16,274 nucleotides of DNA. It comes from a virus (lineage: Duplodnaviria > Heunggongvirae > Uroviricota > Caudoviricetes). How positions within the stretch are numbered: the first letter of the stretch is position 1; every line of letters starts with the position of its first letter. Below the pieces are notes generated by a model that did not search any database, was not told the origin of the DNA, and saw nothing but the letters and a program-made list of their open reading frames with translations. The DNA lies in IMG/VR virus record IMGVR_UViG_2681813314_000019. The stretch is one strand, 5' to 3'. This document shows positions 413-2,300 of this stretch, one piece after another. Both the position numbers and the translations under genes were made by a program.

Positions 413-631
413 ATGTACTTGACACTTCAGGAGTGGAATGCACGCCAGCGACGCCCAAGAAGCCTTGAAACAGTTCGTCGATGGGTGCGCGAATGCAGGA
501 TATTCCCTCCTCCGGTTAAGGATGGAAGAGAGTATCTGTTCCACGAATCAGCGGTAAAGGTTGACTTAAATCGACCAGTAACAAGTAGCCTTTTGAAGAG
601 GATCAGAAATGGGAAGAAGGCGAAGTCATGA
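413..631 (+). CDS. xis: Lambda-type excisionase Xis (72 aa)
   Basis: The 72-aa product [70 protein letters not shown] matches my recollection of phage lambda Xis almost residue for residue. It overlaps the start of int by 23 bp, as in lambda. Confidence 0.9.
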   Translation: MYLTLQEWNARQRRPRSLETVRRWVRECRIFPPPVKDGREYLFHESAVKVDLNRPVTSSLLKRIRNGKKAKS

Positions 632-1679
632 GCGCCGGGATTTACCCCCTAACCTTTATATAAGAAACAATGGATATTACTGCTACAGGGACCCAAGGAC
701 GGGTAAAGAGTTCGGATTAGGCCGAGACAGGAGGATAGCAATCACTGAAGCAATACAGGCCAATATTGAGTTGCTATCCGGGAACAGGCGTGAGTCACTG
801 ATAGACAGAATTAAAGGCGCTGACGCAATCACTCTTCATGCGTGGCTTGACCGATATGAAACAATCCTCAGCGAGAGGGGTATCAGGCCGAAAACTCTAC
901 TCGACTACGCCAGCAAAATCAGGGCAATCCGAAGAAAATTGCCGGACAAACCGCTCGCTGACATATCAACGAAAGAGGTGGCAGCAATGCTAAACACCTA
1001 CGTAGCAGAAGGTAAAGCGGCTTCCGCAAAATTAATCAGGTCAACCCTTGTTGACGTTTTTCGTGAGGCAATAGCCGAGGGGCATGTGGCTACGAATCCG
1101 GTAACAGCAACCCGCACAGCAAAATCAGAAGTAAGGCGTTCAAGACTGACAGCTAATGAATATGTCGCGATTTACCATGCAGCCGAACCGCTCCCAATCT
1201 GGCTGAGGCTGGCAATGGATTTGGCTGTCGTTACAGGGCAGAGAGTAGGCGATTTATGCAGAATGAAATGGTCAGACATAAACGACAACCATCTTCACAT
1301 TGAGCAGGGTAAAACAGGGGCTAAGCTCGCCATTCCGCTGACGCTAACGATTGACGCGCTCAATATCTCATTGGCTGATACACTACAGAAATGCAGGGAG
1401 GCCAGCGGCAGTGAAACAATAATTGCATCAACGCATCACGAACCGCTTTCCCCGAAAACAGTATCTAAGTATTTTACAAAGGCGAGAAATGCATCTGGAC
1501 TCTCATTTGATGGAGACCCGCCAACATTCCATGAACTGCGCAGCCTGTCGGCGAGGCTATACCGGAATCAGATTGGCGATAAGTTTGCTCAACGTCTTCT
1601 CGGGCATAAATCAGATTCAATGGCGGCGCGTTACAGGGACAGTCGCGGGCGGGAGTGGGACAAAATTGAAATATCATAA
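609..1679 (+). CDS. int: Lambda-family tyrosine integrase (356 aa)
   Basis: The N-terminus [58 protein letters not shown] and C-terminus ...[11 protein letters not shown]...[27 protein letters not shown] match lambda Int. The R-K-H-R-H-Y catalytic positions appear conserved ([27 protein letters not shown]). The central core-binding region differs from lambda, suggesting a different attachment-site specificity. Confidence 0.93.
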
Positions 1680-2300
1680 TGGTTTTATTTTGATTAATAA
1701 TGACCAGCGCACATTAACATATTGATAATTAATGAAATTTTTAATATACAACTTCCATGTCATAAGTTGTTGCAGACTGACTGCGCGCATTCCGTTGTCA
1801 GTTTTCGTGGCGCTTCCGGTGTGGTAGATGACGTAACGCCCCATCCAGACCATTAAGTGCTGGGCATCGCCCTGATCGAAAAAAATCATATCGCCAGGCA
1901 GCGCCTGGTTTATGTCCTGGCCAATAAACTGGCTGTTGTACTGAATCAAATTAATCGCGGTCACGTAGGGGCCGGTTTTCCCGTTCCCCTGATTCCAGTT
2001 TTGCGCCAGTTGACGCTGTCCAGGTGTTAGCGTCATCTCTGGCGGCAAATACTGGCTAGAGAAACCGTTACTTTTTAGCCATTTACTATCGTGAACTTTC
2101 AGCGTCTCGTTCGCCGCAAATCGCACCAGGCCCGCACAATCCTGCTGATACCAGCGTGGACTTGGCCCCTGGCGGAGCTGTTCTTGTGCAATGCGTACAA
2201 ACCAGGCGCGAAACAGCCCGGATTGTTCGACATTCAGCATTTCGCTATGGGCAACAACACAACACAGCCAGCAAATCAGCGCCAGCAGCCCGTGCCTCAT
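1674..2300 (-). CDS. yfaT: YfaT-like DUF1175 family protein; an alternative in-frame start at 2327 would give 217 aa
   Basis: The ORF sits immediately downstream of yfaA on the same strand. The ATG at 2300-2298 overlaps the yfaA stop (ATGA overlap), indicating translational coupling. Position and product match the yfaA-yfaT arrangement of E. coli. The 3' end (1674-~1737) lies within the putative prophage junction and overlaps the last two codons of int. Confidence 0.6.
1730..1765. other. Candidate prophage attachment-site core (att junction) downstream of int
   Basis: About 60 bp past the int stop there is an AT-rich segment, AAATTTTTAATATACAACTTCC (1735-1756), resembling the lambda core GCTTTTTTATACTAAGTTGG. 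It occupies the position relative to int where lambda carries attP/attL. The exact boundaries are not determinable from one junction. Confidence 0.3.

Follow-up and report, generated by a model that had tools for sequence, protein, structure and literature searches.

In phage lambda, the cII-dependent promoter pI yields Int without Xis, and Xis and Int together are made from the N-antiterminated pL transcript. Work by Dorgai, Yagil and Weisberg in 1995 is said to have shown that positions 99, 282, 283, 287 and 319 switch lambda Int to the specificity of phage HK022. Specificity roles are also stated for N99D and H329R (PMC10863862). HK022 (NC_002166) has its attB in the torT-torS intergenic region and recombines across the overlap TTCACCT (AGGTGAA on the other strand), which it shares with H19J and with six of six Stx1a phage records; the Stx1a prophages adjoin torS, and strain E2863 shows torT-torS without an insertion. 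Passages of PMC7736782 state that HK022 Int accepts an arbitrary 7-bp overlap when attP and attB match and that its half-sites can be reduced to 5 bp each. A further chromosomal gene, yfaT, is listed as prophage-disrupted by Bobay et al. (PMC3603311) and is a candidate for “regulated gene integrity” in Mageeney et al. (PMC7192596). Here we analyse a stretch of 16,274 nucleotides from IMG/VR virus record IMGVR_UViG_2681813314_000019 (the window), in which a xis-int pair meets yfaT. The feature is very probably the attL-proximal integration and excision module of an HK022-class lambdoid prophage, inserted site-specifically in the 3' end of yfaT and arranged in the order pI, xis, int, P' arm, core. 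As such it is ordinary and already known: the attL end of a known prophage family (the nleA/nleG effector prophages of O26/O111/O103-type E. coli), with a known integrase class (HK022) at a known site (yfaT). The sole mildly new point is that an Int identical over residues 1-355 sits at two different att pairs, with a sharp sequence joint at int codon 341.

The integrase gene occupies positions 609-1679 on the + strand and encodes 356 amino acids in a reading frame that contains neither a frameshift nor a stop, which rules out a pseudogene. Its product, a heterobivalent tyrosine integrase identified by Pfam, structure and sequence alignments, carries an arm-binding domain (PF09003, E=7.3e-29, residues 1-68), SAM-like/central matches (PF02899 and PF22022) and a catalytic domain (PF00589, E=4e-41). 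It aligns end to end with the solved structures of lambda Int (5j0n and 1z1g, E=1.9e-180), and all six catalytic residues (R212, K235, H308, R311, H333 and Y342, lambda numbering) are present. The arm-binding, core-binding and catalytic domains, together with the att architecture described below, place the protein in the lambda family of heterobivalent integrases. The gene immediately upstream, xis (413-631, + strand), encodes a 72-residue excisionase (Pfam Exc, PF07825, E=3.6e-41) that overlaps int by 23 nt, aligns with structure 1pm6 and matches lambda Xis (J02459) at 70 of 72 positions and HK022 Xis at 71 of 72; a winged-helix protein of the Exc family directly upstream of int is what is expected of a lambda Xis-type excisionase. 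The original prediction of an intact lambda-type xis-int module with an essentially lambda Xis thus holds, and both proteins are probably still active.

To place the integrase among its relatives, we combined a translated search of GenBank phages with a residue-level comparison. Residues 1-355 are identical (355/355) to Int of four Stx1a-converting phages of non-O157 Shiga toxin-producing E. coli (LC744181-LC744184). Identity is 98% to HK022 and mEp235 (348 of 356 residues for HK022), 95-96% to H19J and two further Stx1a phages, and 76% to lambda, 434 and HK97, with 86 differences from lambda Int. The eight differences from HK022 Int are A137S, G234S, K261Q, G267S, T275K, E278D, D303N and the C-terminus, which reads ...EIS here and ...EIDK in HK022. 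At the N-terminus, residues 1-64 are all identical to HK022 Int (64/64), so the arm-binding domain is the same, and residues 1-57 match lambda Int at 56 of 57 positions. Beyond that point the likeness to lambda falls to 69.5% in the core-binding region (residues 65-169) and 74.3% in the catalytic region (residues 170-356). The original prediction had described both terminal segments as lambda-identical around an unusual, divergent core-binding region. This is correct for the N-terminus and does not apply to the catalytic part: the lambda-like portion is limited to residues 1-57, divergence spans the core-binding and catalytic domains alike, and what looked like an unusual core-binding variant is an Int of a known class.

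That class is HK022. The comparison with lambdoid integrases that the original prediction had called for gives HK022 as the nearest specificity class, and the protein carries the HK022-type residues D99, P282, K283, K287, R319 and R329. Near-identity to HK022 Int and HK022 residues at the switch positions assign it to the HK022 integrase class by sequence. The prediction that its core specificity is not that of lambda, which fits a location away from gal-bio, is supported. What the module does not share with HK022 is the att pair: in place of the AGGTGAA overlap and the torT-torS attB, it has the overlap TGACATG (CATGTCA) and an attB in yfaT. The exact Int protein is present in thousands of assemblies.

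The att site was mapped by aligning the window 3' of int with the chromosome of E. coli O111:H- 11128, the other end of the prophage in that strain, K-12 yfaT, and the attP sites of HK022 and lambda. Ungapped alignment to the lambda and HK022 P' arms gives three putative arm-type sites on the - strand, P'3 at 1676-1685 (overlapping the int stop codon), P'2 at 1687-1696 and P'1 at 1697-1706, to which we give these names on the assumption of homology to lambda. A lambda “int 4” binding feature is annotated, which supports them. A putative H' site for integration host factor (IHF), TAACATATTGATA, lies at 1715-1727 on the - strand and aligns with CAACAAATTGATA of lambda; we take TAACATATTGATA to be the reverse complement of the IHF consensus WATCAANNNNTTR. 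The attL core spans 1749-1769 (- strand) and consists of C' CAACTTC (1749-1755), the overlap CATGTCA (1756-1762) and B TAAGTTG (1763-1769); the end of the feature in the original prediction, 1765, falls inside it. Comparison of the window attL with the O111 attR (L001, position 7331) and the empty K-12 attB (L002, position 8412), with the register taken from the HK022/lambda attP alignment, identifies the block CTTCCATGTCA (1752-1762) as common to attL, attR and attB. The attR junction between the yfaT 3' fragment and the P arm reads GTGTCCTTCCATGTCAGAAGGAG, and the uninterrupted attB reads GTCCTTCCATGTCATAAGTTG. P' arm, H' and core are therefore all found in the window, ungapped against lambda and HK022, and the P arm is found in the attR of relatives. 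The overall attP layout (P'1-3, H', core, P1/P2 and the sib/tI hairpin) is that of HK022, with 96% DNA identity over window positions 120-1754, and the arm sites and IHF site are spaced as in lambda; the core sites, overlap and attB differ from those of lambda.

The prophage is inserted inside yfaT and does not restore the gene. Compared with K-12 yfaT, the crossover lies within the codons for QLMTWK, so the location given by the original prediction as next to yfaT is in fact within it. The remaining fragment, yfaT' (DUF1175/MagC; 1674-2300, - strand), is recognized by Pfam and has an annotated equivalent in O111; its open reading frame ends 1 nt before the int stop codon. In place of the native last 24 residues, the truncated protein ends in 25 others, unrelated to them, for which the AT-rich P' arm supplies the codons. 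We considered a phage-supplied replacement of the yfaT 3' end and rejected it, because the new 25-residue tail is unrelated to the native one. The insertion appears also to split yfaA-yfaT' from the co-oriented downstream genes yfaS-yfaQ-yfaP. In strain 88_1577 (L005, approximately 17537-17631), the P' arm has lost one T from its T run (TTTTT to TTTT), which frameshifts the phage-encoded tail, and the YfaT' fusion is annotated there with 201 residues instead of 208.

By homology to lambda and HK022, the N-terminal domain of Int would bind the P'1-3 arm sites, and its core-binding and catalytic domains would bind inverted core half-sites of the form nnnCTTn. Int with IHF would then exchange strands across the 7-bp overlap, and the addition of Xis would allow excision. 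The overlap used would be CATGTCA (TGACATG on the other strand) and not the TTCACCT/AGGTGAA of HK022. The predicted catalysis of attP x attB integration and Xis-dependent excision is supported indirectly, by the occurrence of both junctions in a divergent Escherichia genome (described below).

The core reads CAACTTC-CATGTCA-GAAGGAG here and CAACTTA-TTCACCT-AAAGGAT in HK022. Comparing torS-type and yfaT-type half-sites, C is ATCCTTT versus CTCCTTC, C' is CAACTTA versus CAACTTC, B is GCACTTA versus CAACTTA, and B' is AACCTTT versus GTCCTTC. All eight have the form nnnCTTn, with TCCTT, AACTT, CACTT or ACCTT at positions 2-6, and the four yfaT-type half-sites read either TCCTT or AACTT there, which are the two 5-mers of the HK022 attP core (C and C'). 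A new core specificity evolved by the protein, unlike those of lambda and HK022 and directed at yfaT, might be suspected from the differing attB and overlap and from the eight residues at which this Int and that of HK022 differ, of which the catalytic domain holds seven. We consider it very unlikely: the yfaT half-sites keep the HK022 pattern, and residues 1-355 are identical to the Int of torT-torS Stx1a phages that have the HK022 overlap, so the protein cannot explain the target. New protein specificity was rejected on this identity. The target is then set by the att DNA, through the overlap and the core half-sites, and given the tolerance described for HK022 Int (any overlap, 5-bp half-sites), retargeting with an unaltered protein is expected to work.

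The DNA carries a trace of how such a change may have come about. Between the window and Stx1a phage LC744181 there are no differences over positions 585-1630 (1046 bp) and about 22% divergence from 1631 on. This mosaic joint, at int codon 341, delimits an att-proximal segment of separate ancestry (1631-1748, no strand assigned) made up of the int 3' end and the P' arm. The last 15 int codons hold seven synonymous changes, and the differences within int are all synonymous until the last codon. Since identity before the joint is complete and divergence after it is high, the att-proximal cassette has a history different from that of the int body. We tentatively propose that one Int naturally serves both torT-torS (AGGTGAA) and yfaT (TGACATG), and that retargeting occurred by a swap of the att cassette from codon 341 with the enzyme unchanged. 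Both prophage types occur together in some Shiga toxin-producing strains. If the proposal is right, Int and Xis of one prophage, such as an Stx1a phage, could excise or mobilise a co-resident prophage of the other type, such as an nleA/nleG prophage or its remnants, and the differing overlaps would block recombination between the torT-torS and yfaT loci. This would mean possible cross-talk between Stx phages and effector prophages. Because proteins identical over 355 of 356-357 residues occur at two sites, the Int sequence alone is no predictor of the attachment site, a point that bears on prophage-typing schemes inferring attB from int.

The closest relatives of the module belong to the nleA/nleG lambdoid prophage at yfaT, found in O111:H- 11128 and in O26/O103-like strains. 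Window positions 120-2400 differ from the O111:H- 11128 chromosome by a single base, at 206, with the same attL and the same yfaT' fusion; this base change creates a stop codon, and the window further carries IS600 at 119/120. The yfaT junction occurs in 173 of 5426 complete E. coli genomes and the torS junction in 191 of 5426, and strain 88_1577 carries both prophage types. The same prophage end belongs to elements of very different size. In O111:H- 11128 it is part of a 14-kb remnant with nleA and nleG, and in 88_1577 it is part of a near-complete lambdoid prophage of about 52 kb with a full early region, head and tail genes, nleA, nleG and several insertion sequences (IS), including three IS600 copies. 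In CP070296.2 (L010) it is part of a remnant of about 6 kb, with both attL and attR present (L010, 4060 and 11144) and a xis-int-P' arm segment that is 99.94% identical to that of the window. The bacterial genes of CP070296.2 are less similar (94% for gyrA, 92% for ubiG, 85% for yfaT-yfaA) and mark it as a different Escherichia lineage, probably E. albertii. Its near-identical module in a divergent background argues for independent integration at the same site. CP070296.2 is a 4.8-Mb genome; the remnant between its att sites holds nleA, nleG and a Cu/Zn superoxide dismutase gene, and an IS66 lies in yfaA.

Unrecombined copies of the attP predicted from these junctions (CAACTTCCATGTCAGAAGGAG plus the P arm as in the O111 attR) occur in 4 contigs from metagenomes and 12 from viruses. 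In O55:H7 RM12579 (L044, 9086-10080 and onward), the attP unit lies in the effector cargo region of an ompW-integrated prophage. It shares the attP core CAACTTCCATGTCAGAAGGAG and the P arm of the O111 attR with the yfaT prophages and differs from the module in being an unrecombined attP and not an attL, in carrying another P' arm allele, and in adjoining a pseudogene int about 83% identical. This unrecombined yfaT-type attP (core also at L031, 11933-11950) and its frameshifted int stand between tail-fibre genes and nleH/nleF of the prophage at ompW. From its sequence context, we read the int-attP unit as a fossil second integration module within another prophage.

Several points weigh against our main reading. 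Recombination of the yfaT sites by this particular Int is predicted by homology. Closest to the att sites, the bacterial flanks of CP070296.2 resemble E. coli more than the remainder of the region does, and the module there may have moved by homologous recombination. The only unrecombined attP copies adjoin the pseudo-int that is about 83% identical, and a free-phage record with a yfaT-type attP and an intact int was not found in the GenBank phage collection or IMG/VR. A 26-bp attP pattern was absent from IMG/VR, and shorter patterns returned only the fossil attP copies beside the pseudo-int and three unrelated chance matches (L034, L039 and L043). Finally, the mosaic joint at 1631 would fit gene conversion of the int body: a torS-type phage may have donated it to the already integrated prophage, in which case Int and att could be mismatched.

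Such a mismatch would mean that the att cassette once served another Int, a kin of the 83% pseudo-int, and that the int body was later imported by gene conversion from a co-resident torS-type phage, locking the prophage in place. The sharpness of the joint at codon 341, with no difference in the preceding 1046 bp, is consistent with this, as are the co-residence of both prophage types in 88_1577 and the linkage of the fossil attP to another int allele with A283 and R287. We nevertheless regard it as unlikely. The same hybrid is found at yfaT, with both att junctions, in divergent Escherichia, so the hybrid itself appears to have spread; the fossil P' arm differs from that of the window, so the fossil is not its direct ancestor; and HK022 Int tolerates changes of overlap and half-site, according to passages of PMC7736782.

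The other question raised by the original prediction was whether the xis-int pair is an orphan whose phage body has been replaced or cut off by IS600. Reverse-complemented, the window matches without any difference the entire contig CYDM01000065.1 (16,274 bp), from the draft short-read assembly GCA_001284885.1, and both contig ends are IS copies: IS600 at 1-119 and an IS1203/IS629-type end at 16195-16274. The 119 bp at the left contig edge (1-119, - strand) are the terminal part of IS600, comprising the left inverted-repeat end and the start of orfA; they are identical to the end of the annotated IS600 copy in inaA of strain 88_1577 (L005) and diverge from position 120. This identity, together with IS600 annotations, assigns the segment to IS600 of the IS3 family. 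The distance from its end to the xis start is 293 bp, in agreement with the roughly 300 bp originally given. At the opposite edge, 16195-16274 are the first 80 bp of the IS1203/IS629-type element, whose orfA begins MTKNTRFSP, and position 16194 is the point at which strain 88_1577 has IS600 inserted in inaA.

Since the window covers a whole short-read contig with repeats at both ends, the missing phage genes on the left are an absence of data. The apparent cut-off at IS600 is the point where the draft contig stops, and orphan status cannot be inferred from a sequence that stops within a repeat. More generally, a module seemingly cut by an IS at the edge of a window can be a mere contig break of a short-read assembly. 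The exact IS600/phage junction had no match in complete E. coli genomes, GTDB species representatives or IMG/VR; a 45-residue open reading frame spanning it was not on record in a protein look-up, and among the matches listed for the exact Int protein, ten contexts were all at yfaT and none had IS600. The junction itself is probably real. The source strain would then have IS600 inserted in an accessory reading frame upstream of xis.

A true orphan int-xis module, its phage body deleted or replaced via IS600 and its products able to act on neighbouring DNA or on incoming phages, is a possibility that we hold doubtful. Relatives often carry a degraded yfaT prophage (14 kb in O111 11128, about 6 kb in L010), the several IS600 copies inside their prophages could mediate deletions, and a nonsense mutation in the reading frame adjoining IS600 is consistent with decay. 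Against this stand the contig end itself, beyond which the left side is an absence of data, and the lack of the IS600 junction among complete E. coli genomes, species representatives and viral contigs, so that no relative shows the far side; a plain IS600 insertion into the reading frame is also more parsimonious.

A contig of run ERR178166 in Logan (L022), a separate assembly of the same reads, corresponds to window positions 1643-7680 and breaks at 1643 within the int 3' end. This break hints that the genome holds a second copy of the sequence. The known torS-type allele, being different at 1643-1655, does not account for it. The other end of the Logan contig coincides with the ubiG-yfaL intergenic region (window 7680-7760), which contains a sequence like a repetitive extragenic palindrome (REP) and the sole indel relative to O111 11128.

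Upstream of xis, the sequence next to IS600 (120-307, + strand) is the 3' part of a conserved 114-residue lambdoid early-left accessory reading frame (ORF114 in phage 434), which IS600 cuts. The intact frame is present in O111 11128 at L001 19844-20188. It has been damaged twice in the window, by IS600 and by the G>T change at 206, which turns a GAA codon into an in-frame TAA stop relative to O111 11128; the accessory frame that carries IS600 is non-essential. Between it and xis, a terminator-like hairpin (366-381) with a T run precedes the sequence TTGC-N6-TTGC (387-400), the whole occupying 366-400 on the + strand. From 386 into xis the sequence is identical to the lambda pI/xis start, and we take TTGC-N6-TTGC to be the cII box of pI on the basis of lambda biology. 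A pL transcript, if pL survives at all, would need to cross IS600 to reach xis and int. Either cII, or Int and Xis acting in trans, could come from a lambdoid phage that is co-resident or incoming.

Elsewhere in the window, GyrA (4134-6761, - strand) carries S83A (TCG>GCG) and G785S relative to K-12, O111 11128 and 88_1577, from single-nucleotide changes at 6515 and 4409. Only two recorded contigs encode exactly this GyrA, and they come from one sample. We take position 83 to be the main quinolone-resistance position of GyrA and S83A to be a low-level resistance allele.

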